A stretch of DNA of 64,000 bases from Gammaproteobacteria bacterium. GTDB taxonomy: Bacteria > Pseudomonadota > Gammaproteobacteria > Pseudomonadales > Azotimanducaceae. The stretch spans positions 14,042 to 78,041 of the forward strand of contig VXNY01000022.1 of NCBI GenBank assembly GCA_009840305.1, given 5' to 3'. The position numbers and the translations under genes were made by a program. The notes beneath the pieces were generated by a model. The model saw nothing but the letters and a program-made list of their open reading frames with translations, made no database searches and was not told where the DNA came from. This document shows, one piece after another, positions 43,255 through 58,006 of this stretch (position 1 is the first letter of the stretch; each line of letters opens with the position of its first letter).

Positions 43255-45249
43255 TCAATCTGCTGGAGCTGGGATCTTAGGTAGATCCTCCTTTAAACTG
43301 TCCAAGTCTACATTTTCCATCATTTCAACCATCTCTTTGTCATCATCCGTAAGAAATTCTTTCAGTTGGCCTCTCTCTTGATCAGATAAGTCGGCTGACA
43401 TAAACGTGCCCGAGAACATCAAAGCCGACCTAGCAGCCTGCGATCGTAAATTTTTATTGGGGAGTTCACGAATCCCAGCTTCCAAGTGACTAAACGGGGA
43501 GCGTTGACCAACACTGAACGCGATAGTCTGCAAGAAATCTTCACGTTCATGTTTTGGCAACTGATTTCCCAATTTAATCGCATCGCCGATTCTGTCTTCT
43601 TCTTCCAACTGCCACGCAACGTGCTTATAAGCTTCTACTTTTGACTCACCTTCGCGAATTCTTGGTAAAAGAGCAATCGCTTTATCTAAATCTCGAAAGG
43701 CAACCCATTCTACAACCGTAACTTCTAACGGGATAGTTCCTTCTTTCAATGGAGTTTGAAGTGCCATTTCAAACGCAATATCTGGATCAGATTTCGCCCA
43801 ACTTTCAAAAACAGAATCGAGATATTGTTGCCTTGTCGCATCGTCCAATAGGGATGAGTCGGAGTTTAGCCAAGCAATAGTAGCAATAGGGTCCGCTACT
43901 GTAGCATCAGAAATAATTTGTGTAATGAAATAATGGTTTAGGGAAGTGCGAACCGAAAACTCGCCTTCGGGTAGTTCATCTGCCGGGGTCTCAGGCCAAA
44001 TACTCATCATCGGTAGCAGTTCGATCGCTTCCAGCGGAGAGTCTCGCGATAGCCGTTGCGCGACCTTCAGATATGCTTGGTCATGAAATTCCGCCGGAAA
44101 GTGATGCAGTGAGACAAGTACCAAGTGTGGATTTGTTGTTGCCCAATGGCCGATGACTTCTTCAGTTATTTCGGCTTGAAAACTCCTAACGTCCTCATGC
44201 TGTAACCTGTGCCACAGTGCGTCTGGATCAGCAGCAAACCACGTTTGGCTGACCCCGGACAGTAAGTTCACGTCGACATCGTCGTCTAAGCGCAATATGA
44301 ACTCGAAAACACCAGCGGGGTCTTCTTTTGATACGTCCGCCACCACGTCTGCTCCCCTACCAGCCATCATGGATCTAAGAATCTCAGGAACGTTGTCAGT
44401 TGGTACTCTGTCGAACAGGTCAAGAACCGTGGGTAAAGAGTCCAAACCCTCCACTAGAACGTAACGTACAGCTTTTCGCTCTAGTTGGATCATTTCGTAG
44501 AAACTACCCGCGTCAGCACTTGCAAATTCAGATTCTAATTCATCCAAGGAGATTGGACTCTGATCTTGTTGCCGTCGATCGATCAAGTTGTTTATATAGT
44601 TTTCTTCGTACCCTAACTCCGTACCGATGTCAAACAAATCCGCTCGAGAAAGAAATTTTCCTCCACTAATTAGTCCCCGAAATCCTAGACTTCGCAACCC
44701 ACTGCCGAGCGTTGTCAAAAACACGATAGCTTCGTCCGTATGCACTGGACTCCACTCACGCATAACACCGTATAAAACCGACTCCTGATCTTGCTCGTCT
44801 ATTTGTTCAATCAGCTTATGTGCTTTGGCTTCGTTCACGCCAATTAATTTTGTCAGTACGATGCACTGTACCCAATACGTCGAGTCAAGTGATCCTAATA
44901 CGTTAGGGACTTCAAGGGTGTCGTGAAATACTTTCAACAACACATCCTCAGTCGCGCCTGCGACGACACGTAGCAACGCACGCTTGGTATCAAATAAGCT
45001 ATTGGACTGTTCCACTATATCGGCAAGAGAGTGAAACGTAGCGATCGAACCGGTCTGAGGTTGGGACATGACAGAGTCTGAGTCTCGAGTATCTGAAGCT
45101 CGATGGTCGTTTTGTTGCGTTTCAGAATCTTGTACGAGTGCTCTCGAATTTTCCCGGTTCAACAAAAACAGTGTCGCCAGAATTCCAACGCAAATTAAGA
45201 AGCAAATTATGAGGGCAACAATATATATGCTTTTTTTGGACTTATTCAT
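43255..45249 (-). CDS. exported alpha-helical repeat protein, family A copy 1 (function unknown)
   Basis: 664 aa. An N-terminal anchor (MNKSKKSIYIVALIICFLICVGILATLFLL) is followed by a polar acidic linker and then recurrent W-x3-DP-x2-A type helical repeats (SQTWFAADPDALW, IGHWATTNPHLVL, FESWAKSDPDIAF, VVEWVAFRDLDKAI). It starts 7 nt after the stop of the upstream gene. Confidence 0.7.
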   Translation of the reverse strand: MNKSKKSIYIVALIICFLICVGILATLFLLNRENSRALVQDSETQQNDHRASDTRDSDSVMSQPQTGSIATFHSLADIVEQSNSLFDTKRALLRVVAGATEDVLLKVFHDTLEVPNVLGSLDSTYWVQCIVLTKLIGVNEAKAHKLIEQIDEQDQESVLYGVMREWSPVHTDEAIVFLTTLGSGLRSLGFRGLISGGKFLSRADLFDIGTELGYEENYINNLIDRRQQDQSPISLDELESEFASADAGSFYEMIQLERKAVRYVLVEGLDSLPTVLDLFDRVPTDNVPEILRSMMAGRGADVVADVSKEDPAGVFEFILRLDDDVDVNLLSGVSQTWFAADPDALWHRLQHEDVRSFQAEITEEVIGHWATTNPHLVLVSLHHFPAEFHDQAYLKVAQRLSRDSPLEAIELLPMMSIWPETPADELPEGEFSVRTSLNHYFITQIISDATVADPIATIAWLNSDSSLLDDATRQQYLDSVFESWAKSDPDIAFEMALQTPLKEGTIPLEVTVVEWVAFRDLDKAIALLPRIREGESKVEAYKHVAWQLEEEDRIGDAIKLGNQLPKHEREDFLQTIAFSVGQRSPFSHLEAGIRELPNKNLRSQAARSALMFSGTFMSADLSDQERGQLKEFLTDDDKEMVEMMENVDLDSLKEDLPKIPAPAD

Positions 45250-45256
45250 GATGGGC

Positions 45257-47089
45257 TCATCGACTCAATAGTAATTTAACGCGTTGCAACTCAGACGGAT
45301 TTACATACTCCATGAGAGTGTCTACATCTTCCGACGATAGAGGCTCCTTGTCTTCTTGAAACGAACTAAATAAGAGTACGTTTTCGGCGATTTCGGATTG
45401 TGCGTTCTTCGCCGGTATGTTGGGGAGTATCTCCAATATCTTTTCAAGTGGTTCTTGAGTAGCTATAGAAAACGTCATGCTGTCGTAGAAACTAGTCTGT
45501 GCTCTTTTAGGAAGAGATTTTCCTAGTTCAATCGCTTCATCCGTCCTTTTTTTAAAAATGAGTCCTCTCGATACGGATTCAAAAGCAGCTAACTGAGTCG
45601 GACCCGTTCGAACTCTGTTTAACAAGCGCATAGCAACGTCAGTGTCTGAGAAGCTGAGCTCGTCAATCACGATGGCTTCTAAGCCAATCTCTTTTGCGCC
45701 CTTGATCGGGCGACTCAATGCTAAATCGATAGCTTTGTCAGCATTTTGATCAGTTAATTTCTCCAAAAAAGACTTGAGGAGACGATCTCGATACCCTTCA
45801 ATTTCTGAATCAGACACGACCCAATGAAACGCTGCATCAGGATCGGAATCGAGCCATGAGTCGACTATGATTAGCGCTGCTTGTTCCTGCTTTGCGGCTT
45901 CTGACATCTCCAGTAAGACGGTAAGTGCATCCTCTATTGACTCGTTTGACAATTGAGCGATGAGGTGCATTCGAGCGGTGTCTCTTAACTCGGAAGGAAC
46001 ACTGTCGACCGAGTTCAAGAACTTTGTCGGATCGAGCTGAACCCAAGATGACACAACAGTTTGTTGCAAACGATCGCGAACTCTAGAAGGTTCAAGTAGG
46101 CTTACTCGAGTTAACGCACTGTCTGGATCGATGCGTGCCCAAGTATTGATTACCGATGTAAGCATCGAACCGAACACATCGTTAGGAGTTGTTAATGCAT
46201 AGTCGAACGCGGATTCTGGTTCGCTGAGTGCGACCTTCGACAAAATGCTCTTTCTCAATTTGAATCTCAGAGTAGGGCTAACGATCGAACTGAGTAAATT
46301 GTCGATCTCTGATACGCCGTACTTATCGATCATGGCCTTCGCTACATGTTTTATTCGGAAAAAGTTCTTTTCGAGATGGCTAGTCGGGTCGTTGATCAAC
46401 TCAGTCCACGCTTCATCTGGGTTGGCTAAATCGACCGCCAGTTGGTGCGCACGGACCGCTCGTTCTACATAGGCTGAATCGCCAAATTCGGTGCCTAAAT
46501 CCATGAGGGTTGCTTCAGGCAAGCTTAGACTTGCGTCGATAATCCCTCTCAGTGCGATCTGATGGATCGACGTATCTTGTTTCCGCGCAAATTCAACGGC
46601 ACCATCAAAATCTTTACTCGCCCACGCATGCGTTATTCCATAGAGCATATATTTGGCTTCTTCTAGTGGTTGCGCGTCATACAGAGAGACTGTTTTCTCG
46701 AGATTTAGAGAGGCTAGCTGAGCACTGATTAACGAGATGAGTTCGAACTTCCACGCGCGATCTTCTTTGGCGTAATTTCTCTCTGTAGCCTGATCAAACA
46801 AGTCTACTAGTTTCGCCTCGTCAGCAGTTCCGATGAGTTCGTAGGCCGCGCTCAAACGACTCAAATCGTCCGAGTAATCTCGAAAGAGATCCTGAATAGA
46901 CCCATCGGTTAGTGTTGATGGATCGAGTGATTTACTATTCGTACCAGTATCGAGTTCAGCGTCGGTTGAGTCTCCAACGACATTGTTTGTAGCTGCGAAC
47001 GCAAGCGAATTTACAAAGCACAAAAACAGTGATACAAGTATTGTTACAAACGCGCTCCGACAACTCCCCTCGCAGCATATGGCTGTCAT
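45257..47089 (-). CDS. exported alpha-helical repeat protein, family B copy 1 (function unknown)
   Basis: 610 aa. It has a signal peptide ending ...SLAFA-ATNN and the repeats ITHAWASKDFDGAVEF, INTWARIDPDSAL, VSSWVQLDPTKFL and VDSWLDSDPDAAFHW. Confidence 0.7.
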   Translation of the reverse strand: MTAICCEGSCRSAFVTILVSLFLCFVNSLAFAATNNVVGDSTDAELDTGTNSKSLDPSTLTDGSIQDLFRDYSDDLSRLSAAYELIGTADEAKLVDLFDQATERNYAKEDRAWKFELISLISAQLASLNLEKTVSLYDAQPLEEAKYMLYGITHAWASKDFDGAVEFARKQDTSIHQIALRGIIDASLSLPEATLMDLGTEFGDSAYVERAVRAHQLAVDLANPDEAWTELINDPTSHLEKNFFRIKHVAKAMIDKYGVSEIDNLLSSIVSPTLRFKLRKSILSKVALSEPESAFDYALTTPNDVFGSMLTSVINTWARIDPDSALTRVSLLEPSRVRDRLQQTVVSSWVQLDPTKFLNSVDSVPSELRDTARMHLIAQLSNESIEDALTVLLEMSEAAKQEQAALIIVDSWLDSDPDAAFHWVVSDSEIEGYRDRLLKSFLEKLTDQNADKAIDLALSRPIKGAKEIGLEAIVIDELSFSDTDVAMRLLNRVRTGPTQLAAFESVSRGLIFKKRTDEAIELGKSLPKRAQTSFYDSMTFSIATQEPLEKILEILPNIPAKNAQSEIAENVLLFSSFQEDKEPLSSEDVDTLMEYVNPSELQRVKLLLSR

Positions 47090-47302
47090 GAGATTTCTCC
47101 TTCAGTTATTGGGCAGAATACATCAATATAAGAACAATCCTACGATTGTATACCACCACTAGGGAATCGGCGCGAAAGTCTTAAATTGATTCGAATTTGG
47201 TGCGATACGCCATTCAAGTGCGCGTTCGCTATAGCTGACGGTCGAACACAAACACTTTCAACTATTAATGTGGCGTCGCTTAGAGTGTATTAGCGATACT
47301 GC

Positions 47303-49288
47303 TTAATCTTCGGACGAGTCCTCGTGAATTCGATCTTTGAACATACGCCTACCCATCTCGAGCAACCTTTTTTCGCGGTCGGTTAAAAACTCTTTGAATT
47401 GATCCAACTGTTTATTGGTCATTTTGGGTGCCATTTCGGGGAGATAGTATGTGAAAGAAAGTCTTGAATAAATAGCTCTAGACTGCAACTCTTGAGATGG
47501 AAGAGCGCGTATCCCTGCAATCAAATGATCAAATGGTTCGCGATATCCGATTTGCCACGCTAGTGAATCGTTATATTCTTCACGTTGGTGTTGGGGTAGG
47601 TCACTGCCCAAATGGAGTGCGTGTGAGATTCTGTCTTGTTCCTCCAATCGCCACATTACTCGTCGATAAGCTCTCATTTTTGTCGTACCTTCGCGGACTC
47701 TTGGTAACAGTTTAATCGCTTCATCGACATCACTTTTCGCCACCCACCCGACGACCGTTGCTTCAAAGCCTGCGGTATCGCCGGCTAACGGAATTTGCTG
47801 AGCCATTTCAAAAGCTGTATGTGGATCAGATCCAGCCCAACTTTGGTAAGCTTTATCCAAAAAATGTTGCTTCATGGAGTCATCGAGGTGAGACACGCTC
47901 GACTCAATCCACTCGATCGCCGCCACCGGATCTGCTTTGGTAGCAGCCGCAATAGTACGGTCGATCGAGAAATAAAACCCCACATTTCTGGCAGTTTCAT
48001 TCTCACTCTGTTCTCGATCACTCATAGTCTGGGACCAGTCGCTGGTCTTCGTCAGAAGTTCGAGTGCTTCGAGAGGAGAGTCTGGTGCTACTTCGAGTGC
48101 GACTTCAGCGTACACGAGGTCGTGATATTCTGTGGGAAATTGATCCAGTGAGACTAGTGCAAAATCAGGCTCTCTCATCGTCCAATGTCTGATAACGTCT
48201 TCAGTCACTTCTTCCTGTATATCTTTAAGATCTTCGCCTTTTAACCGATTCCATAGTGCCTCTGGATCGGTAGCGAACCACACTTCACTAACTGAAGACA
48301 GCATGTCGACATCAAGGGGCTCTCCTAAACTCACTAGGTGCTCAAACACCGGTTCTGGGTCGCTACGTGCAATAGCAGCCACAAGTTTCGATTGAGTACC
48401 ACCGAAGAACATTCGTACAGTCTGGGACATGTTTTCTGCTGAATTTTCTTCGAAAACTTCCAGAACTCGCGCTAACGAATCCAAGCCCTGCTCGTGAACA
48501 AAACTTACAGCCTTTCGTTGTGCTTCGTGAAATCGGTATTTGCCTTTCGAAATAACACTTTCAAGTGCTGTTGCGATGTCATCCAGGGAAATTTGGTCCT
48601 GTTCAAGTTGATGCCGGTCTAGCAAGTAGGTTAAGTAGTCTTCTTGATAGCCCAATTCAGTACCCATTTCTATAAAGCTGGCTCGGCTGAGAGAACTACT
48701 ACCGTCGATAACCCCTTGCAATCCGCGCCTTTGCAATCCGTCGTCGAGCAATGCTAAAAATTTGACCGCTTGGTCCGCATACATCTGGTTCCATTCACGC
48801 ATCACACCGTATACCACGACTTCTGCAGTTTGTTCGTCAAGCTGTTCCATTAATGAATGAACTGTGTCACCGTCAATATCGATCAATTTAGAAAGGACGA
48901 TACCCCTTAGCCATTGAGTCGTTTGAAGGGAATCGAACGCCAATGGGTATTCACGACTTTCGTGAAATATTTCCACAAGTTCGCGCTCGGTCGCGTTATC
49001 AACTAAGCTTAGTAACGATCGTTTTAGATCAAATAAGTTGTCATATTCGGTCAAAGCGTAAAAGAGCGAGTGTTCGTTCAAGTTCGAACCGTTTGGACGT
49101 TGCGAACTACCAGACTTTGAGTCTACAACATCTTGATCGCTGCGATCATCGTCTTGAACGTCAGTGTTTTGTGCGAGCAAGTCAGTATTTACAGGAGGTG
49201 CCACATTAGTCGCTCCAACATTTCCGACACTCAAGATAAATGGTGTCGTTAGAGCTAAAACGCGAAATATTTGCTTATTCTTGTTCAT
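47303..49288 (-). CDS. exported alpha-helical repeat protein, family A copy 2 (function unknown)
   Basis: 661 aa. It is colinear with 43255..45249 along its whole length (e.g. VYGVMREWNQMYADQAV, SEVWFATDPEALWNRL, YQSWAGSDPHTAFEMA, VVGWVAKSDVDEAIKLLPRVREG). It starts 6 nt after the upstream stop. Confidence 0.7.
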   Translation of the reverse strand: MNKNKQIFRVLALTTPFILSVGNVGATNVAPPVNTDLLAQNTDVQDDDRSDQDVVDSKSGSSQRPNGSNLNEHSLFYALTEYDNLFDLKRSLLSLVDNATERELVEIFHESREYPLAFDSLQTTQWLRGIVLSKLIDIDGDTVHSLMEQLDEQTAEVVVYGVMREWNQMYADQAVKFLALLDDGLQRRGLQGVIDGSSSLSRASFIEMGTELGYQEDYLTYLLDRHQLEQDQISLDDIATALESVISKGKYRFHEAQRKAVSFVHEQGLDSLARVLEVFEENSAENMSQTVRMFFGGTQSKLVAAIARSDPEPVFEHLVSLGEPLDVDMLSSVSEVWFATDPEALWNRLKGEDLKDIQEEVTEDVIRHWTMREPDFALVSLDQFPTEYHDLVYAEVALEVAPDSPLEALELLTKTSDWSQTMSDREQSENETARNVGFYFSIDRTIAAATKADPVAAIEWIESSVSHLDDSMKQHFLDKAYQSWAGSDPHTAFEMAQQIPLAGDTAGFEATVVGWVAKSDVDEAIKLLPRVREGTTKMRAYRRVMWRLEEQDRISHALHLGSDLPQHQREEYNDSLAWQIGYREPFDHLIAGIRALPSQELQSRAIYSRLSFTYYLPEMAPKMTNKQLDQFKEFLTDREKRLLEMGRRMFKDRIHEDSSED

Positions 49289-49294
49289 ATTTGT

Positions 49295-51193
49295 TCACCG
49301 TGCCTGAAAACGACGAAAACGTTGTGCGTAATCCGATGTCACGTGCTTCAACAACGTCTTTACTTCATCTTCGGTATATAAATCTTCGTCATCGGAAAAC
49401 CGATGAAACCACAGTGCGTTTTCTGCCATTTTGGCACGAGCTTCCCGCACTGGGAGTGCTGAGACAAGTTTCACGATCCGTTTCGGGGATTCTTGCGTGA
49501 CTATATCAAAGGCTATGCTGTTGTAGAAACGTCGTTGATCGTTTTTGGAAAGTTGTTTCCCTAGTTCTAACGCTTCCTCTGTTCTTAAGTCGTAAATGAG
49601 TCCAGTCGAAACCGATTCAAAAGCCGCAAGTCGAGTATCTCCAGGTCGAACTCTGTTTAATAAGCTAAGGGCGCGTTCGGTCTCCGTGTGTGCGATCGCT
49701 TCAATGACCACAATTTCCAGACCCACACCACGCTCCTCGTTGATTGGTTGACTTAACGCTAAATCAAAGGCTTTATCAGCATTTCTCTCGGACAACTTCG
49801 TCAAAAATGAATTGACTAGTTCATCCCGGTATTGGTCATTTTCTGCATTTGACAACACCCACTCAAAGGCTTCATCGGGATTTGAATCAATCCAAATATC
49901 CACAATCGCGAGCGCTGCTTCTTCCTGAGTACGGACGTCTTGGATATCCAGGAAAACCTCTAGCGCATCATCAATCGAATCCTTAGACAACTGTCCCACA
50001 AGGCTCAAACGCGCCGTGTCGTGCATTTCGACAGGAATACCGTCAAGAGAGTCTGCAAATTTTTTTTGATGTAATTGCACCCAAGACGCAACGACCTTTT
50101 GCTGTAATCGATCGCGCACGATCGAGGGTTCAAGTGTGTTTACTCGTGCTAAAGCACTTTGTGGATCGGTGGTAGCCCAGGTGTCTATCACCGCCGTTAG
50201 CATCGTTCCAAACACATCGTTAGAAGTCTCTAGTGCGAAGTTGAAGGCGGTTTCAGGATCACTGAGCGCGACATTGGACAGAATGCTTTTTCTGAGTGCG
50301 AAATTCAGTGTAGGGCTTGAGATCGAACTGAGTAAATCATCAATTTCTGCAGCTCCATGTTCGCCGATCAACGCGTTCGCTACAAGTTGAACTCGGTAAA
50401 AGTTCTCCTCAAGATTGATCTTTGGATCATTGATCAAATTCGCCCAAGCTTGATCAGGATCCGCTAAATCCGTTTCCAATTGACGAGCAGCGACTACGCG
50501 TTCGACATAAGCTACATCGCCGAGTTCGGCACCTAGTTGCATCAGGACCGATTCTGACACACTTGGACTAGCATCGACAATCCCTCTCAGCGCGACGGAG
50601 TGGATGGATGCGTCTAGCTTACGAGCATATTTAGCGGCAACATCAAAGTCCTTCCCTGCCCACGCGTGCATCAAGCCGTAGAGGATATGCTTGGCGACTT
50701 CAGGAGGTTGCGATTCGAACAAAGAAATCGTCTTATCAAGATTCACAACAGCTAACCGAGAACTAATCAACGAGATTAGCTCGGATTTGCTAGCTTCTTC
50801 TTCCTGTGTGTATTTTCTCTGAGTGACATGATCGAACAAGTCGATCAATTTAGCCTCATCCGCATCCCCAATGAGATCGTAAGCTGCTCTTAAGCGACTG
50901 AGATCGTTTGAGAATTTGCGATAGAGGTCATTGATGGACTCGGCTTCTAGCAGACCGGGTGCGGATTCCCGTTCTGCCAGCCCTGCATCAGATTTAGCAT
51001 CCGACGAGTCGGCATCACTTTCTTGCGATGCGCCAAACATCGAGACACTAGCAATCGTAAAAAACAGCATGAAAAATACAGAAAGAGCTGTACTCCAACT
51101 GTTCTTACTTGAACTTAAACGAGCCAAGAAAATTCTCCTCGAGTTGTTCCCTATTCGATATTTATACCCACGACGAACACTTTTAGTCAACAA
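49295..51193 (-). CDS. exported alpha-helical repeat protein, family B copy 2 (function unknown)
   Basis: 632 aa. It is colinear with 45257..47089 (DLSRLRAAYDLIGDADEAKLIDLFD, LMHAWAGKDFDVAAKYA, IDTWATTDPQSALARV, VDIWIDSNPDEAFEWV). The hydrophobic segment is ALSVFFMLFFTIASVSMF. The TTG start is uncertain. Confidence 0.65.
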   Translation of the reverse strand: MLTKSVRRGYKYRIGNNSRRIFLARLSSSKNSWSTALSVFFMLFFTIASVSMFGASQESDADSSDAKSDAGLAERESAPGLLEAESINDLYRKFSNDLSRLRAAYDLIGDADEAKLIDLFDHVTQRKYTQEEEASKSELISLISSRLAVVNLDKTISLFESQPPEVAKHILYGLMHAWAGKDFDVAAKYARKLDASIHSVALRGIVDASPSVSESVLMQLGAELGDVAYVERVVAARQLETDLADPDQAWANLINDPKINLEENFYRVQLVANALIGEHGAAEIDDLLSSISSPTLNFALRKSILSNVALSDPETAFNFALETSNDVFGTMLTAVIDTWATTDPQSALARVNTLEPSIVRDRLQQKVVASWVQLHQKKFADSLDGIPVEMHDTARLSLVGQLSKDSIDDALEVFLDIQDVRTQEEAALAIVDIWIDSNPDEAFEWVLSNAENDQYRDELVNSFLTKLSERNADKAFDLALSQPINEERGVGLEIVVIEAIAHTETERALSLLNRVRPGDTRLAAFESVSTGLIYDLRTEEALELGKQLSKNDQRRFYNSIAFDIVTQESPKRIVKLVSALPVREARAKMAENALWFHRFSDDEDLYTEDEVKTLLKHVTSDYAQRFRRFQAR

Positions 51194-51468
51194 CGACTAG
51201 TGAAAGTAGTAATTCGTGTGACAGTTCAGTCGACATGGGTCACTGAAGAGTTCCAATATACAACAGAGAACTGAGAAACTTTTGCTGATGAGTTTCCATT
51301 ACCCTGTACCGAATTGTTTCAACTCAGTACCGTTCGTAGTCGTGATTTACCTATTACTTTAGACTCAGTGTCACCGAATATCGTTACGAGTTTTAGTCAC
51401 TGATTGTCCGCCGCGATAATCAACGGAGAGCTTGTCTAAAATCGAATTCTCGCTACTTCACACGATTA

Positions 51469-53112
51469 ATGAGACTTACGACAGTGAACAAGACTCTTCA
51501 ATACTCAATACTACTATGCTTGACCCTGTTGCTCTACTCGTGCGATCAGGGTCAAACCAACGTTTATACCATCACTGGGACAATCGAAACAGTCGATATA
51601 CCCGTTGTTGACGGTAGCGAGGAGGTACCCGACGTCGAAGAGAATGCAGTCGATTGGGGATCTGCAAAAGTAGTAGTAACCCAGGAGACTACCAACTCTA
51701 CTGGGGAAATTGCAACTGTAGAGCTAGCATCGGGAACGTTCGAGGACGGTGGAGTAACCTTGAGAGGTGACATAGAGCAACCAACCGAAGTAAAAATCTC
51801 TGCTGAAATAGACGGAGCGGAAGCACTGGTACTGGACGCGGTTATCGCACCCGAAGCAAATTTAAAGTTCTTGCTCATTGAATATCCCGCATTTAACTCC
51901 GCCAGCATGGATTTTTACGGAGAATCTCGCAAAGTTCTAGACCTCGCAAATCGATTTTCAGTCTTTGGCGACCTCAGTTCAATTGCCGCAGACTTCGAGA
52001 GAGCTACCCTGCGAGTCACAGCTTGGGAATACGATCATCTGGGAGAACAGGTGACTCTGAACTATGGTCGCGTGTTACTGGACGAAGGACAGTTCTTCAT
52101 TGAAGCAGACGTCGACGAACCGAGAGTGGTCAATATTTTGGTGATATTACCCGCTAGCCAAGAGTACACTCAATTTCATGCCATAGTCGAACCAGGAGCT
52201 CAAATCGAAATAGTTCCTCAGAGTTCCTCGTTAAATGACCTCTCTCCCGTATCTGGAACGGGAAAACACGCACAACTCGTCGAAAGCTGGCGGCAGAGTG
52301 AGGAATATCTACAGTTAAAACAAGAGTATCAAATTGCGTATCAAGAGTATCAAGAGAACTCACAAAATGGCGAGGAATCTACCGGTACCGCCGAAGAAGA
52401 AACTCCAAAGTACTTACAACTCAGTAGAAAACTGAGTCGCATACGATACGACTATTTAGAAGATGTAGCGTCAAACACTGAAGACCCTATGGACGCGCTA
52501 CTCGCGCTTGAGTTGAGTGCGTATTGGGGAAAGGAGGAAGCACTACCAATTTACGACCGGCTCACAAATAGTCTTGACAAGGACTTAGTGATGCGGCGCG
52601 TAACTCACGATCGAAATTTTCACGCGCGAAATCTCGCAAGCCGCGGAATTGATCGAAGTCTTGTGGTCGGAAAGAGTGTCCCGGATTTCACACTTCCTAA
52701 CTTGAGCGGAGAAACAATTTCTCTTAGCGATTTGCAGCAGAAAAACGATGTAGTGCTTGTCGAATTTTGGGCGTCATGGTGTGGACCGTGCATCGAGGCC
52801 ATTCCAGCATTGAAGGACTTGTATTCTACCTATCGCAAACACGGATTCGAGATAGTTTCTGTTTCAATAGACGACGAACAAGATTCTTGGATTGAAGCCT
52901 CGGGAAAGTATGAACTGCCTTGGATAAATTTGGGTGAGTTAGCGGGGTGGAACGGGGAAGTCGCCACGTCTTTTGGCGTGACCTTTATTCCCAAGAACTA
53001 CCTAGTAAATACACAAGGAGAAATCGTAGAAAAAGATCTAACGTCAAAAGCACTAGATGAATGGCTAGCAAACAGATTTGAAGAGAAGGCGGAAGAGGAC
53101 GTAGCGAATTGA
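51469..53112 (+). CDS. TlpA/ResA-like thiol:disulfide oxidoreductase lipoprotein with a long N-terminal extension
   Basis: 547 aa. The lipoprotein signal is ...LCLTLLLYSC. The C-terminal thioredoxin fold has FTLPNLSGETISLSDL ... VLVEFWASWCGPC ... FEIVSVSIDD. The N-terminal roughly 400 aa contain two beta-rich segments resembling DUF4369-type modules plus a helical linker. Confidence 0.8.
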   Translation: MRLTTVNKTLQYSILLCLTLLLYSCDQGQTNVYTITGTIETVDIPVVDGSEEVPDVEENAVDWGSAKVVVTQETTNSTGEIATVELASGTFEDGGVTLRGDIEQPTEVKISAEIDGAEALVLDAVIAPEANLKFLLIEYPAFNSASMDFYGESRKVLDLANRFSVFGDLSSIAADFERATLRVTAWEYDHLGEQVTLNYGRVLLDEGQFFIEADVDEPRVVNILVILPASQEYTQFHAIVEPGAQIEIVPQSSSLNDLSPVSGTGKHAQLVESWRQSEEYLQLKQEYQIAYQEYQENSQNGEESTGTAEEETPKYLQLSRKLSRIRYDYLEDVASNTEDPMDALLALELSAYWGKEEALPIYDRLTNSLDKDLVMRRVTHDRNFHARNLASRGIDRSLVVGKSVPDFTLPNLSGETISLSDLQQKNDVVLVEFWASWCGPCIEAIPALKDLYSTYRKHGFEIVSVSIDDEQDSWIEASGKYELPWINLGELAGWNGEVATSFGVTFIPKNYLVNTQGEIVEKDLTSKALDEWLANRFEEKAEEDVAN

Positions 53113-53329: not shown

Positions 53330-54538
53330 CTAGTCAAAAGGATGCCAAATCGGTACGAGTGTTCGTGCCTCTCGTCCGCTTCCCGAAGTTGTGTCCATAG
53401 CAATATCTACTAAACTTACGACAGTTTCTCCTTCGCACAATACCGGCCAGCCGTCTCTAAGCCATGGAGGAATAGACGATTCCTGAAACAGGTTCGCGAG
53501 CTTCTTGTGCATACCTCCACCTGTTATCGACCGTTGATCTTCTTTTAGGTGAAGGCGATTGGTACACAGCAAAGTGCGCCCTTCTTCAAATCCCTGCTTC
53601 GAATTCTTCCAAGTCAAATTTCCGTTGTTTAATTGAATCGGTCTACCAACTTCGATTGTCAGCGGCGTAAACTCTTCGTAAACTTTTACTACATGTAGTC
53701 GTTTCCGATATCTACGGACAAATAAACCATCGGCGACCTTAATTTCGGGATTAGCATCAGCTTTTGCATCGACTTGTAGTTGGATTTCTCTCAATACTGA
53801 AGTCGGCGGGTTCACTTCGAAAGCCAACAACCACGCGCGGATGTCTTCAATGGTGAGTTCTTGATCGGGTAACTCGAGCGGTTCACGTTTGACTAATGGA
53901 AGCGTCGCCTGTTTTAGGTCGAGTATGCGATGCTTCCCCTGCGGAAATCGTTTTTGAAGTTGAGGTACCAATTCATGGCGAATCCAATTTCGATCAAAGC
54001 TCGTGTCCTTGTTACTTTCGTCTTCTATCCACGTTAGTTCATGTTGTTTTGCATATGCTTCTAGCTCCTGTTTTTCCACATGAAGTAACGGACGACACAG
54101 TGTTCCCGAACCTAACGGGCGGGTTTCGGGTATTCCAATCATCGCACGTCCGGTAAAGAATTGCCAGACCAAAGTTTCAATGTCGTCATCTAGCTGGTGT
54201 GCTGTGAACAAGAAATCGTCCGATCCGACACGCTGTCGAAACATTGAATAACGAGACAAGCGGGCTTGATATTCCAGATTTCCCGTCAAGACTTCAACCT
54301 CGTCCACAGTGAGATCAACCTGCCAATGATCAGTAGTCCGCATACAGTGCTCCACCCAGCTGGCAGATATCGAGTTCAATTGATGGTTTATGTGTATTGC
54401 CCGACATCGTGAAGACCCAAATACTTGAATGCTAGCATGCAACAAGACTGTAGAGTCTAACCCGCCGCTATAAGCGATCCAAATCTTCGAGTTTGTCGGA
54501 AGATCAAGCGCGGTCAGTGCTACAAGAACAGGACACAC
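53330..54538 (-). CDS. tilS: tRNA(Ile)-lysidine synthetase
   Basis: 402 aa. The PP-loop IAYSGGLDSTVLLH is present. The position between pyrG-side genes and dnaE is as in pseudomonads. GTG start. Confidence 0.85.
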   Translation of the reverse strand: MCPVLVALTALDLPTNSKIWIAYSGGLDSTVLLHASIQVFGSSRCRAIHINHQLNSISASWVEHCMRTTDHWQVDLTVDEVEVLTGNLEYQARLSRYSMFRQRVGSDDFLFTAHQLDDDIETLVWQFFTGRAMIGIPETRPLGSGTLCRPLLHVEKQELEAYAKQHELTWIEDESNKDTSFDRNWIRHELVPQLQKRFPQGKHRILDLKQATLPLVKREPLELPDQELTIEDIRAWLLAFEVNPPTSVLREIQLQVDAKADANPEIKVADGLFVRRYRKRLHVVKVYEEFTPLTIEVGRPIQLNNGNLTWKNSKQGFEEGRTLLCTNRLHLKEDQRSITGGGMHKKLANLFQESSIPPWLRDGWPVLCEGETVVSLVDIAMDTTSGSGREARTLVPIWHPFD

Positions 54539-54544
54539 CGCGAG

Positions 54545-57500
54545 CTACAAGTCGTGGTAGTACGCGACTCGTACAGAGTCGCTTCCAAATTGATTCTTTA
54601 GTTCGTCCATCAGTTCTGGAGTGGCGCACACGTTCCATTCAGGGCTTAGCTCTAACTGCGTCGACCCACCATCGATAGCACAGTTAACTCGAACCGAACA
54701 CTCATTCGCGCGCCACGCACGTAGCGTATCGAGTAATACGCGCACTAAATCACTCTTTTCATTCTGATCCTGCATATCAATTTCCACTGTCGCGTGGTTT
54801 TCATTCCGAATCTTCGAGATCGTTGCAATCTTGGTAGTCTGTATGCGCTTGTCTTTGGTTTTTCGTTCAACTTTGACCGAAAAGTACGCGACCACAATCT
54901 CACCTGCTTTGGGTAAGTCTCGAGTCATCGCATTTTCAGCAAACAGGGACAGTTCTTTACTACCATGCTCGTCTTCGACTTGAACTCGAGTGACCTTCTT
55001 CCCAGAACGGGTTTCGCTCACTCGCGCGTCTTTAACCATACCCGCGACGGTACGTGTTTGATCGGGAGATACCTTGTCAATAGTCGTTAAATTGTGATGT
55101 GAGCACAGTTTCTGAAGTTCTGGGCGATATTCTTCGATTGGGTGACCGCTGACATAAAAGCCCAGAGTCTTACCTTCATCAAATAGTAGCTTGCGTAGCG
55201 CGATAGGTTCCACATCCGGCACAGGCACATTGTTCCCGCCTTCATCTGAAGCACCGAAGAGATCACCGAGCTTTTGTTTTTCGCGTTCAGCTCGTTGTTC
55301 CACCGCATGCGTCGCCGTATTTACTTGCGCGAGGAATTCGGCGCGTTTAGTGGAAATCGGCTTCTGCTCTTCAATGCAATCTAGAGCCCCTGCATGAATC
55401 AAGCTGACGAGGAGATTCCGGTTGCGCCGGTGAAAGTCTGACCTTTCACACAAGTCAAACAAAGATGTGAAAGCACCCGTGGAGCGGGCATCAACTATGC
55501 GCTGCGCTTCTTCCCGAGCAATACCTCGTACTGCTGCAAAACCCACGGTAATCTTGTCCTTATGTCCAACAAAATTCCACTCGCTCTCATTGACACTTGG
55601 TGGCACAATCTTTACATCTAGACGTTTTGCTTCGTCCATGAACAACTTGATCGTATCTCGTTCACTTTCACAGCTAGCTAAGGCTGCAAGAAACTCTGCT
55701 GGGTAGTAATACTTGAGGTACGCGGTCTGATAAGCGACAATGGCATAACCAACCGTATGAGCGCGATTAAATGCATATCGTGCAAACTTGCGCATGTCTT
55801 CATAAATCTCAAGAGCTACAGACTTTCGTACGTCATTTTGGACACATCCCTCGATGAATTTAGGTTGAAGTTCAAGCATCTCGGCTTCATTTTTCTTGCC
55901 CATTGCAGAGCGTAGCTTATCCGCTTCGCCCATCGAAAAACCTGCAAGTTCCCGTGCAAGATTCATTACATCCTCTTGATACACCATCAGCCCAAATGTT
56001 TTTGACAACACTTTTTCGTGGATCGGATGCAAATATTTGACATCTTCTAACTTGTTTTTGCGACGTATATACCGGTCGGTCACTCCGGTATCTAACGGTC
56101 CTGGACGAAATAGCGCGAGGAGCGCGATGAGATCTTCTAAGTCAGTGGGATTGAGATCTTTGACCTTCTGTCGCATTCCAATGGATTCCAATTGGAAGAT
56201 ACCTGTCGTCTCTCCTTCGTGCAGACTTTCAAACACTTTGGGATCGTCCATCGGTAAAGCCATCGGACTGAGAGGATCTTGCTTCTGGCGTTTGCGCTCG
56301 GAATTAATACTCTCCAATGCCGTGGCGATAACGGTCATGGTCTTGAGACCAAGAAAGTCGAACTTTACTAAACCAAGCTCTTCGACATCTTTTTTATCCA
56401 GTTGAGTAACTGACTCACTCTCCGACGTCTCAGTGTAGATTGGTACATATTGATCCAAGTCATCAGGCGCGATGACCACGCCCCCGGCATGTTTACCGCG
56501 ATTACGGACCAGGCCTTCGACTTCCATCCCCTTGCGTACGATGGTTTCTACGTCGGGATCTGATCGTACCATCGTTCCTAATTCCGACACTTCCGCGATT
56601 GCTTCGGCAATGGGAATCGGTTGAACGCCTCGAATCGGGATAAGTTGAGCGATTTTCTCTGCTAAACCCCTGGGTTTACCTAGCGCGCGAGCTGCGTCTT
56701 TAACTGCGACTTTTGATCCAAAGGTGTTGAAGGAGACAATTTGTGCAACGCTTGCGCGCCCGTACAAATTGGTGACGTATTCAATCACTTCATTCCGACG
56801 ATTCATACAAAAGTCAATGTCAAAATCGGGCAGCGAAACTCGTTCAGGATTAAGTAGTCGTTCAAACATCAATTCGTACTTAATGGGATCAATGTCGACA
56901 ATACCCAGTACATATGCAACCAAAGACGCCGCACCGGATCCCCGGCCTGGTCCAACAGGTATCTTTTGTTGCTTTGCCCACGAAACTATATCGCCTACTA
57001 TTAAAAAATAGCCGGCGAATCCCATCTGTTTAATCACTTCAAGTTCCCTTTGAAGCCGTTTGACATAGACTTCACGGTCAGAAATTTGCTTGGTTACTAC
57101 ATCATCTGTCTCGAATAGAACGTTTAATCGTTCGTGAGCAATTTCGTCGATCAGCTCTTCAGGCGTACCCTTCCGCTCAGTACGAAATTGAGGTAGATAA
57201 CGACCCGAAGGAATTTCTACAGTACATCGCTTAGCGATCTCGTTGGCGTTTTCTAACGCATCTGGTAAATCTTTAAAGAGATCTGACATTTCTTTTAGCG
57301 AACGCAAATATTGTTGTTCACTGCAGTACTTCTCGTGCGTCCCGTTTCCGATTCTCTGCTTATGTGCAACACAATATCGGGTCTCATGTGCGCTGTAATC
57401 TGACTGCTCGACGAATCGAACATCATTGGTAGCCACAAGAGGAATCCGATGTTCTTGAGCAAGGTCTACAGCGTGCGCGATGTATGCTTCCTCTTGATCC

Positions 57501-58006
57501 CAACCAGTTCGACTCAGTTCTAAGTAGAAACGACTCGAAAATATCTGCGATAGCTCAATGGCTGCCTGTGCTGCGCCCTTGATATCCGAATTTGCTACGA
57601 GCCTTCCGACTTTCCCCTGGATGCCGCCGGAGAGCGCAATCAATCCATCAGCGAGCGAAGTCAATTGTTGCATTGTGATACAACCATGAACCTCGTACTT
57701 TGTATACGCGATGGTCATGAGCTTGTAAAGATTTCTCAGACCATCTTGGTCCATAGCAAGTAATAAGAGACGATCTTGGTTTTTTGCGCCGTCCAATACA
57801 CGAACATCGGTACCAAAGATGGGTTTCACACCTTTTGCGCGCAGTTTGTGTTGAAACTGCCAACATGCAAAGAGATTGGTTAAATCAGTTAGTGCGACTG
57901 CAAAAATTTTGCGTGCTTTACATCTTTCGGCGAGTCGGTCTATGCGAACAACACTGTCAATAATTGAGTATTCGGTGTGTAGGGAAAGATGCGCAAACGA
58001 TTTCAT
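54545..58006 (-). CDS. dnaE: DNA polymerase III alpha subunit
   Basis: 1153 aa. It has the PHP domain start MKSFAHLSLHTEYSIIDS, the polymerase core (GPGRGSGAASLVAY, LPDFDIDF), and a C-terminal OB fold region. Confidence 0.97.
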   Translation of the reverse strand: MKSFAHLSLHTEYSIIDSVVRIDRLAERCKARKIFAVALTDLTNLFACWQFQHKLRAKGVKPIFGTDVRVLDGAKNQDRLLLLAMDQDGLRNLYKLMTIAYTKYEVHGCITMQQLTSLADGLIALSGGIQGKVGRLVANSDIKGAAQAAIELSQIFSSRFYLELSRTGWDQEEAYIAHAVDLAQEHRIPLVATNDVRFVEQSDYSAHETRYCVAHKQRIGNGTHEKYCSEQQYLRSLKEMSDLFKDLPDALENANEIAKRCTVEIPSGRYLPQFRTERKGTPEELIDEIAHERLNVLFETDDVVTKQISDREVYVKRLQRELEVIKQMGFAGYFLIVGDIVSWAKQQKIPVGPGRGSGAASLVAYVLGIVDIDPIKYELMFERLLNPERVSLPDFDIDFCMNRRNEVIEYVTNLYGRASVAQIVSFNTFGSKVAVKDAARALGKPRGLAEKIAQLIPIRGVQPIPIAEAIAEVSELGTMVRSDPDVETIVRKGMEVEGLVRNRGKHAGGVVIAPDDLDQYVPIYTETSESESVTQLDKKDVEELGLVKFDFLGLKTMTVIATALESINSERKRQKQDPLSPMALPMDDPKVFESLHEGETTGIFQLESIGMRQKVKDLNPTDLEDLIALLALFRPGPLDTGVTDRYIRRKNKLEDVKYLHPIHEKVLSKTFGLMVYQEDVMNLARELAGFSMGEADKLRSAMGKKNEAEMLELQPKFIEGCVQNDVRKSVALEIYEDMRKFARYAFNRAHTVGYAIVAYQTAYLKYYYPAEFLAALASCESERDTIKLFMDEAKRLDVKIVPPSVNESEWNFVGHKDKITVGFAAVRGIAREEAQRIVDARSTGAFTSLFDLCERSDFHRRNRNLLVSLIHAGALDCIEEQKPISTKRAEFLAQVNTATHAVEQRAEREKQKLGDLFGASDEGGNNVPVPDVEPIALRKLLFDEGKTLGFYVSGHPIEEYRPELQKLCSHHNLTTIDKVSPDQTRTVAGMVKDARVSETRSGKKVTRVQVEDEHGSKELSLFAENAMTRDLPKAGEIVVAYFSVKVERKTKDKRIQTTKIATISKIRNENHATVEIDMQDQNEKSDLVRVLLDTLRAWRANECSVRVNCAIDGGSTQLELSPEWNVCATPELMDELKNQFGSDSVRVAYYHDL

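Follow-up and report, generated by a model that had tools for sequence, protein, structure and literature searches.

Paired alpha-solenoid genes and a divergent TlpA-like lipoprotein gene form a conserved module at the pyrG-tilS site of sponge- and coral-associated Pseudomonadales

CcmI (CycH), a helical-repeat (TPR) chaperone of apocytochrome c, stands beside the TlpA-type thioredoxin CcmG/CcmH (PMC3884852), and CnoX (YbbN) unites a thioredoxin fold with a helical-repeat (TPR) holdase that guards its clients under hypochlorous acid (HOCl) stress (PMC8129009, PMC6282202). A locus with parallels to both lies in a 64,000-nucleotide stretch of contig VXNY01000022.1 (positions 14,042 to 78,041, forward strand; assembly GCA_009840305.1), hereafter the window, from a gammaproteobacterium of the Azotimanducaceae (Pseudomonadales). 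Between pyrG and tilS, the open reading frame (ORF) list gives four same-direction minus-strand genes that form two diverged B-to-A cassettes in the order B1-A1-B2-A2 and encode exported alpha-solenoid proteins; a gene for a TlpA/ResA-like thioredoxin lipoprotein lies divergently beside B1 (Table 1). The B-A cassettes and the divergent lipoprotein gene constitute a conserved module in sponge- and coral-associated Pseudomonadales ('OMG group'), and the link between the solenoid proteins and a TlpA-like lipoprotein is reproducible and has not been reported previously. As in CcmI-CcmG/CcmH, a membrane-anchored, presumptively periplasmic helical-repeat protein is tied to a TlpA-type thioredoxin, the tie in the window being a genetic one; the resemblance to CnoX, in which a thioredoxin fold is combined with a helical-repeat holdase, concerns a role that is proposed only.

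The pyrG-tilS site is occupied by the block in all seven contigs that span it among metagenome-assembled genomes (MAGs) of sponge or coral Pseudomonadales, with full-length orthologues in one to three cassettes; three more contigs end within the block. The order in the site-spanning contigs is dnaE-tilS, the thioredoxin lipoprotein gene on the opposite strand, (B-A)n and pyrG-kdsA-eno, where n is 1 in L006 and L010, 2 in L002 and L008, and 3 in L001 and L011 (L numbers denote related loci). The synteny pyrG-kdsA-eno-ftsB-truD-pcm is retained in all related loci, and the A1 orthologues in L001, L002, L008 and L011 are 67-69% identical. The original prediction, made from the window sequence alone, had described four ORFs in a B-A-B-A duplication with tight spacing within pairs, inserted between pyrG and tilS, with A and B as distant homologues. 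All of this agrees with the ORFs, gaps and alignments and with the common site in related contigs: the stop-to-start gaps are 6 nt (B1-A1), 7 nt (B2-A2) and 213 nt (A1-B2), A1 and A2 are 43% identical over 657 aa (E=0), B1 and B2 are 54% identical over 599 aa (E=0), and A1 and B2 are colinear with 25% identity over 551 aa (E=6e-43).

Redoxin genes and solenoid genes are juxtaposed at four independent places among seven loci of Group I, the branch of the wider family that includes the window proteins. At the main locus, the thioredoxin lipoprotein gene and the first B gene are divergently oriented in all orthologous loci. At L015, a 32%-identical paralogue of the thioredoxin is divergent from a B-like gene (24% identity), and a separate solenoid pair has a divergent neighbour that encodes a 218-aa AhpC/TSA redoxin. 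At L016, four ORFs that match the lipoprotein family (two of them probably one split gene) come after a B-A pair, and one of the four has a thioredoxin domain. By estimate rather than computed statistic, four juxtapositions are far above chance adjacency for a gene class with a handful of members per genome. This repeated flanking of solenoid genes by redoxin paralogues is why the TlpA-like gene is counted into the module; the gene had been regarded earlier as part of a lineage-specific block, and is now better described as a linked partner than as a bystander. The solenoid proteins thus probably work with the thioredoxin-like lipoprotein, as far as gene neighbourhoods can indicate.

The lipoprotein matches AhpC-TSA (4e-22), Thioredoxin_8 (1.6e-18) and Redoxin (5e-18) in Pfam, the ResA/DsbE/TlpA models of NCBIfam (below their equivalog cut-offs) and 179 PDB sequences, the best being the Bacteroides TlpA-like structures 3fkf and 3fw2. 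The first 400 or so residues of the lipoprotein have sub-threshold DUF4369 matches, which recur at the same position in paralogues, and the C-terminal thioredoxin domain carries the active site WCGPC. Orthologues and paralogues alike retain WCGPC; their lipobox reads L-x-[SAG]-C and is followed at +2 by Asp, Asn or Glu, with Asp in most orthologues, as in the window protein (lipobox LLLYSC). The thioredoxin-fold match, CxxC site and export signal place the protein with TlpA, ResA and DsbE. Bacteroidota-type TlpA lipoproteins (DUF4369 plus AhpC/TSA) are similar in having a thioredoxin domain of the 3fkf and 3fw2 type, WCGPC, a lipobox and, below threshold, DUF4369; however, the N-terminal region of the window protein is about twice as long, and its gene is gammaproteobacterial and linked to solenoid genes. 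In Escherichia coli, Asp at +2 after the lipobox Cys leads to retention in the inner membrane. By this rule the lipoprotein is probably kept in the inner membrane, on the same membrane face as the solenoid anchors. A homology between its N-terminal region and the solenoid repeats, suggested by the string DPMDALLAL, was rejected (hhalign probability 0.07%).

AlphaFold2 models of B2 and A2, built with family alignments, share a layout consisting of an N-terminal hydrophobic helix, about 35 disordered acidic residues and an uninterrupted all-alpha solenoid. In B2 (predicted local distance difference test, pLDDT, 86.7) a helix at residues 11-32 and a disordered segment at 33-61 are followed by 15 helix-pair repeats with a period of about 32 aa, each unit comprising a long helix of 17-18 residues and a short helix of 9-10 residues that usually opens with [DN]P-x2-A. 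In A2 (pLDDT 79.8) a transmembrane helix starts at residue 3, residues 28-69 are disordered, and the solenoid follows. The models thus confirm the repeat architecture for which a structural check had been recommended, and together with the N-termini they agree with the signal or anchor, acidic linker and helical repeats first read from the sequence. The motif proposed to mark the repeats, W-x3-[DN]P-x2-A-x2-W, fared less well: in its strict form it occurs once per protein, whereas the degenerate form [WLV]-x3-[DNSE]-[PFIAT]-x2-[AFKI] does mark repeats, fitting 9 of the approximately 15 in B2 and being weaker in A2.

All four proteins have an N-terminal hydrophobic segment, preceded by about 5-20 residues in A and B; signal peptides and anchors were assigned by inspection. 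In the A proteins the hydrophobic stretch spans about 22 residues and lacks an A-x-A site, so it reads as a signal anchor. In type-2 B proteins the signal ends in FA|AS or FA|AT (LAFA|AT in the window B2), a canonical signal-peptidase site. The proteins are acidic (16-17% Asp plus Glu), and past the signal the B proteins contain no cysteine and the A proteins none or one. Given the signal or anchor, the disordered linker and the solenoid, A and B should sit in the periplasm, tethered to the inner membrane or close to it.

The fold class is familiar, but the protein family is undescribed and has no Pfam or NCBIfam model. The absence of a match to a characterised family, already noted in the original prediction, holds throughout the searches made. 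In Pfam, the four window proteins had no match below E=0.02 and none near a gathering score, and 10 distant relatives gave only sub-threshold matches to non-repeat models (best E 4e-4), again none near a gathering score. The solenoid proteins had no match in NCBIfam, none among the PADLOC defence models and none among PDB sequences with single-protein or profile queries, and literature searches found no description of the family. Foldseek against the PDB returned only eukaryotic solenoids of generic type (designed PPR, SF3B1, karyopherins, PP2A-A) at E values of about 1e-3 and TM-scores of 0.15-0.29. Like HEAT, ARM, PPR and TPR solenoids, the window proteins are built from antiparallel helix pairs stacked every 32 residues or so; unlike them, and unlike Sel1 proteins, they match no repeat-family hidden Markov model in Pfam and carry a signature of their own, the 17-18-residue helix followed by a 9-10-residue helix opening with [DN]P-x2-A. 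Pfam scans did not assign them to any eukaryote-type repeat family either (ANK, TPR, LRR, WD40 and similar).

These results also separate the block from the two closest systems. The window proteins match neither TPR_CcmH_CycH nor any TPR model, they have a single N-terminal hydrophobic segment where CcmI has two transmembrane segments, and their solenoid extends over about 550 residues instead of a few TPRs. Moreover, the flanks contain no ccm genes, the solenoid genes are paired and multi-copy, and the thioredoxin belongs to a 547-aa lipoprotein extended by a large N-terminal region. CnoX, in turn, is a single cytoplasmic polypeptide without sequence similarity to the window proteins, whereas here the corresponding functions would be distributed over separate periplasmic proteins.

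The solenoid genes evolve under purifying selection and are constrained yet fast-evolving. Ratios of nonsynonymous to synonymous substitution rates (dN/dS), computed like dS against the orthologues in L008 and L002, are 0.21-0.41 for the A and B genes, 0.16-0.17 for the thioredoxin lipoprotein gene and 0.02-0.07 for pyrG, eno and kdsA; the solenoid-gene values are 3-10 times those of the flanking housekeeping genes. One tract within the second cassette stands apart. Its nucleotide identity to L008, from a MAG of a different species, is 94-99%, while the housekeeping flanks reach 82-92% and B1, A1 and the thioredoxin gene 60-84%; its identity to L012 (MAG isolate Plut_88873) is 94-98% up to the alignment limit at 45890. 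Values of dS are 0.12-0.17 in the tract genes and 0.63-1.1 in the other genes of the locus. High identity and low dS together indicate, at the level of sequence comparison, a recent exchange of the B2-A2 allele between species by recombination or transfer.

The favoured reading, with a probability of roughly 0.35, is that B and A form a periplasmic scaffold, tethered to the inner membrane, that recruits clients for the reductase. The gaps of 6-7 nt within pairs and the A genes, which have no strong Shine-Dalgarno site of their own, suggest coupled expression, so that B and A would be made in fixed proportion through coupled translation. The two proteins would act jointly as a binding platform at the inner membrane, either a holdase or an adaptor, which would capture unfolded or damaged envelope proteins or other ligands and present them to the TlpA-like reductase retained in the same membrane. 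The different cassette types (one to three per locus, and more elsewhere in the genome) might supply different client specificities. Since B lacks cysteine and A has at most one, an adaptor or holdase fits better than a redox substrate. Several observations weigh against this scaffold. There is one thioredoxin gene per one to three cassettes, so the ratio is not fixed; no redoxin occurs within 8-10 kb of the family loci L019, L020, L021 and L022; and no DsbD/CcdA or client gene is evident nearby among the window ORFs examined. A solenoid fold alone, here a modelled one, does not reveal a ligand. In addition, the high dN/dS relative to housekeeping genes, the variable copy number and the recombination of cassettes between species are more typical of genes facing other organisms than of a housekeeping chaperone.

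The latter traits would be expected if the block were a variable envelope module of biotic conflict or host interaction, an explanation that is possible though not probable. Its solenoids would bind molecules from a host, a phage or a competitor once these enter the periplasm, as immunity or decoy proteins or as symbiosis factors; the arrays would be a diversified repertoire, and the redoxin a co-selected stress gene. A precedent exists in Pseudomonas aeruginosa, where the effector PldB has tandem periplasmic helical-repeat (Sel1-like) immunity proteins. Besides the accelerated dN/dS, this explanation would account for the one to three copies at one locus and arrays of at least five at others, for a family member situated amid insertion sequence (IS) elements, and for a 3-kb B2-A2 tract that is 94-99% identical among three genomes whose housekeeping genes differ by 10-18%. 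It is also in line with the distribution of the family. The NCBI protein F4X56_02565 (B2) is annotated 'MAG: hypothetical protein [Gammaproteobacteria bacterium]', and the close homologues (52-93% identity) are all MAG or metagenome sequences. Those representing species are from 'Pseudomonadales', 'Gammaproteobacteria' or 'OMG group' MAGs, including the SB06xx bins, a series that also holds sponge-symbiont Poribacteria MAGs; the isolate label Plut_88873 (L012, L016) is read as Porites lutea. The protein libraries carry no habitat data, but wherever the source of a close homologue can be identified, it is a sponge or coral MAG or a metagenome contig of matching synteny. Sponge-associated bacteria have expanded families of eukaryotic-like repeat proteins (ankyrin, TPR, LRR), and the close homologues of the window proteins likewise come from sponge and coral MAGs. 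However, the window proteins are anchored or periplasmic and nothing suggests that they are secreted to a host, and distant relatives occur in Verrucomicrobia of free-living type. Furthermore, no toxin, effector, secretion-system or phage gene is adjacent, PADLOC gives no match, whole-gene dN/dS is well below 1, and the repeated linkage to redoxins would be left unexplained. The periplasmic scaffold and a host-interaction repertoire are not mutually exclusive.

Neighbour-joining trees resolve at least three old cassette types, and the trees of A and B are broadly congruent, which implies that cassette pairs largely evolve as units. They support the history proposed originally, in which one gene gave rise to a pair and the pair was then duplicated, with the refinement that the duplications are old and predate these species. 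The first-pair type of the three-pair arrays is found at a different locus in MAG SB0661_bin_12 (L015, VXLL01000029). Since L015 carries a cassette type that is kept elsewhere at pyrG-tilS, cassettes move between loci. The whole 22 kb of L015 is a second 'island' containing six family members and two redoxins.

A profile built from A, B and distant matches, searched against clusters at 50% identity, matches 22,169 clusters at E<=1e-3 and 3,242 at E<=1e-30. The block is therefore not a lineage-restricted orphan but a locally duplicated member of a very large family; the designation 'lineage-specific' applied to it at first remains apt for the insertion and fails for the proteins, which also form arrays in other genomes. 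The best 150 representatives split into two groups. Group I, to which 63 of the 150 were assigned, comprises proteins of 600-670 aa that align colinearly from end to end, carry an anchor at the N-terminus, contain hardly any Cys, show 25-30% identity to B (slightly less to A) and have in common an invariant C-terminal block, GLEA...LLPxVRxGxT. The window proteins share the colinearity, the anchor, the paucity of Cys and the C-terminal block. Group I genes, some of them on other gammaproteobacterial contigs, occur as a pair (L020), as arrays of at least five (L021, L022) and as a singleton (L019). Group II proteins are longer (700-870 aa), have sharper WAxxDPxAAxxW repeats and, where named, belong to Verrucomicrobia. 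Two Group II members, P0096 and P0216 (L017:3542-5998), combine an extracytoplasmic function (ECF) sigma-70 domain, a transmembrane segment and a solenoid in a single chain; P0216 lies between genes for GH43-, GH95- and GH106-type glycoside hydrolases, followed by a 586-aa protein of unknown function. A further word-indexed protein search with the profile added almost nothing beyond one ECF fusion, two JGI metagenome scans, for which a Group I subgroup and the lipoprotein's N-terminal domain served as queries, found nothing, and the neighbourhoods of the Verrucomicrobia-type relatives L003, L004, L007 and L018 showed no recurring partner.

With an anchor at the N-terminus, a flexible linker and a long solenoid (about 550 residues), the window proteins are laid out like known periplasm-spanning proteins. 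It is nevertheless quite unlikely that the window proteins are purely architectural or ligand-binding, that is, TolA- or LpoA-like spacers or scaffolds in which the anchored solenoid spans the periplasm to a peptidoglycan, polysaccharide or outer-membrane partner with no redox role. The ECF-sigma-fused relative in a glycoside-hydrolase locus, the homologous membrane protein of about 1160 aa that recurs beside family arrays and the invariant Trp residues of the repeats would agree with such a function, but the conserved Trp may simply belong to the repeat core. The block in the window has no cell-wall or polysaccharide genes, and one to three or more diverged copies exchanged between species would be unexpected for an architectural protein.

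Upstream of the first cassette, the 632-codon mechanical ORF of B1 opens inside a -35-like hexamer. The preferred start is the TTG at 51125-51127, which is preceded by a GAGGAG Shine-Dalgarno sequence and a promoter-like TTGACT-18-TATAAA; the -10 box, the Shine-Dalgarno sequence and the start are conserved in four orthologous loci, and the -35 is less conserved. Most likely, judging from these signals, B1 begins at this TTG (51127) and is 610 aa long instead of 632, which makes it equal in length to B2. The ORF lengths given originally (632, 661, 610 and 664 aa) hold for A1, B2 and A2 and probably not for B1. A GAACT motif at approximately 51225-51230, about 100 nt upstream of the B1 start, occurs at -100 in five orthologous spacers (window, L002, L008, L013, L014); in two spacers that have diverged further it stands at -71 and -73. 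It resembles the AAC-containing -35 of ECF-type promoters and may be a regulatory site. A SigmaE-type promoter for B1 is no more than a lead: the GGAACT at -126 shows no conservation in L002 or L008, and the -10 region downstream of the conserved GAACT (about -100) misfits the TCnaA consensus. An Rfam scan found no RNA element in the block, and terminator and promoter scans of the block gave results at or below shuffle expectation.

The conserved GAACT, the ECF fusions P0096 and P0216, which resemble ECF sigma factors with fused extracytoplasmic domains and bear the same repeat domain, and a family pair adjoining rpoE-rseA-rseB could together point to an extracytoplasmic sensor, with the solenoid as an anti-sigma-like input domain of an ECF pathway. 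This is very unlikely for the window proteins, in which the 5-20 or so residues before the hydrophobic segment leave no room for a cytoplasmic sigma-binding or signalling domain, and which have no sigma domain themselves and no sigma or regulator gene in their block. The fusions are also rare (one of nine long proteins scanned, and one of 56 among the matches listed with precomputed Pfam domains) and belong to the remote Verrucomicrobia-type group, where about a quarter of the query aligns, at about 20-29% identity.

Some relatives have broken copies: B2 is truncated to 400 aa in L012, and both B and A are fragmented in L016. Either gene decay or assembly error may be responsible. The notion that the ORFs are spurious or decaying and without function, which such copies might favour, is effectively refuted by the four intact ORFs of 610-664 codons, the intact orthologues in all seven site-spanning contigs, dN/dS of 0.2-0.4, confident AlphaFold2 folds and thousands of homologues. 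Frame disruption in relatives had been named in advance as a sign of decay; in most relatives the copies are intact with dN/dS below 1.

Should the link to the reductase prove functional, it would give a role to a very large family without a Pfam or NCBIfam model and to many 'TlpA family' lipoproteins whose clients are unknown, and would provide a periplasmic counterpart to the chaperone-thioredoxin pairings CcmI-CcmG and CnoX. A broader proposal, unlikely as a whole, is that a widespread, unnamed superfamily of periplasmic alpha-solenoids (>22,000 clusters) includes paired and arrayed members that act as exchangeable specificity adaptors for TlpA-type reductases, and that sponge and coral symbionts have a diversifying repertoire of them, shared by recombination, which protects or remodels the envelope against host-derived stress. 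Such an adaptor repertoire would be new both as a class of periplasmic redox-proteostasis module and as a kind of symbiosis-associated gene family. Whatever the mechanism, the family marks genome plasticity in sponge and coral symbionts (copy number, locus moves and exchange between species), and this plasticity recommends it as a tractable subject for work on host adaptation. The finding does not bear directly on a long-standing question.

Table 1. Positions of the solenoid block, its neighbours and candidate control sequences in the window
Feature	Position	Strand	Description
pyrG	41396..43036	-	downstream edge of insertion
A2	43255..45249	-	664-aa signal-anchored alpha-solenoid protein
B2	45257..47089	-	610-aa exported alpha-solenoid protein; 100% identical to NCBI F4X56_02565
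Recombination tract	43700..46700		about 3 kb; most of A2 and C-terminal four-fifths of B2
Inter-cassette spacer	47090..47302	-	213 bp; promoter-like site 47152..47125; Shine-Dalgarno AAGGAGA before B2; consensus match only
A1	47303..49288	-	661-aa exported alpha-solenoid protein
B1	49295..51127	-	610-aa (likely) exported acidic alpha-solenoid protein; mechanical ORF extends to 51193 (632 codons)
Divergent control region, B1 / thioredoxin lipoprotein gene	51128..51468		putative; sequence conservation and consensus matches only
-10-like TATAAAT	51160-51166	-	in divergent control region
-35-like TTGACT	51185-51190	-	in divergent control region
TlpA/ResA-like thiol-disulfide oxidoreductase lipoprotein	51469..53112	+	547 aa; lipobox LLLYSC, WCGPC; Pfam, NCBIfam and PDB matches
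tilS	53330..54538	-	upstream edge of insertion; dnaE next

Outside the block, the 64-kb window contains no additional paralogue of the solenoid genes. Its remaining genes are housekeeping genes (parC, parE, katG, ahcY, lysC, alaS, mutS, eno, kdsA, pyrG, tilS, dnaE), and the GC content of the block (0.43-0.48) barely differs from that of the flanks (0.45-0.50). tilS abuts dnaE with a gap of 6 nt (window 53330-58006), while P. aeruginosa presumably has accA between the two; on that assumption, the backbone departs from the Pseudomonas order in more than the insertion.

Other family loci have neighbours of their own. The L020 pair (L020:7924-13908; 635 and 640 aa, 77-nt gap), on a gammaproteobacterial contig, lies on the opposite strand directly beside rpoE-rseA-rseB. 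The L019 singleton (L019:3267-9713), on a 2.69-Mb contig, is found amid four transposase genes (DDE_Tnp_1 twice, Transposase_mut and DUF772), a setting consistent with an IS-rich symbiont genome. In L016 (Plut_88873), genes for a DNA methylase and a His-Me/endonuclease VII-type nuclease (L016:1422-2896) are located just upstream of the fragmented B-A pair. The membrane protein of about 1160 aa is encoded beside solenoid arrays at two unrelated loci (L015:5994-9503, minus strand; L021:3110-6577, plus strand); the window has no copy of it. Its N-terminal 290 or so residues include several transmembrane segments, and a large part of the protein is extracytoplasmic. Neither Pfam nor NCBIfam gives a match, and the homology between the two copies extends from end to end (19% identity, E=5e-39).

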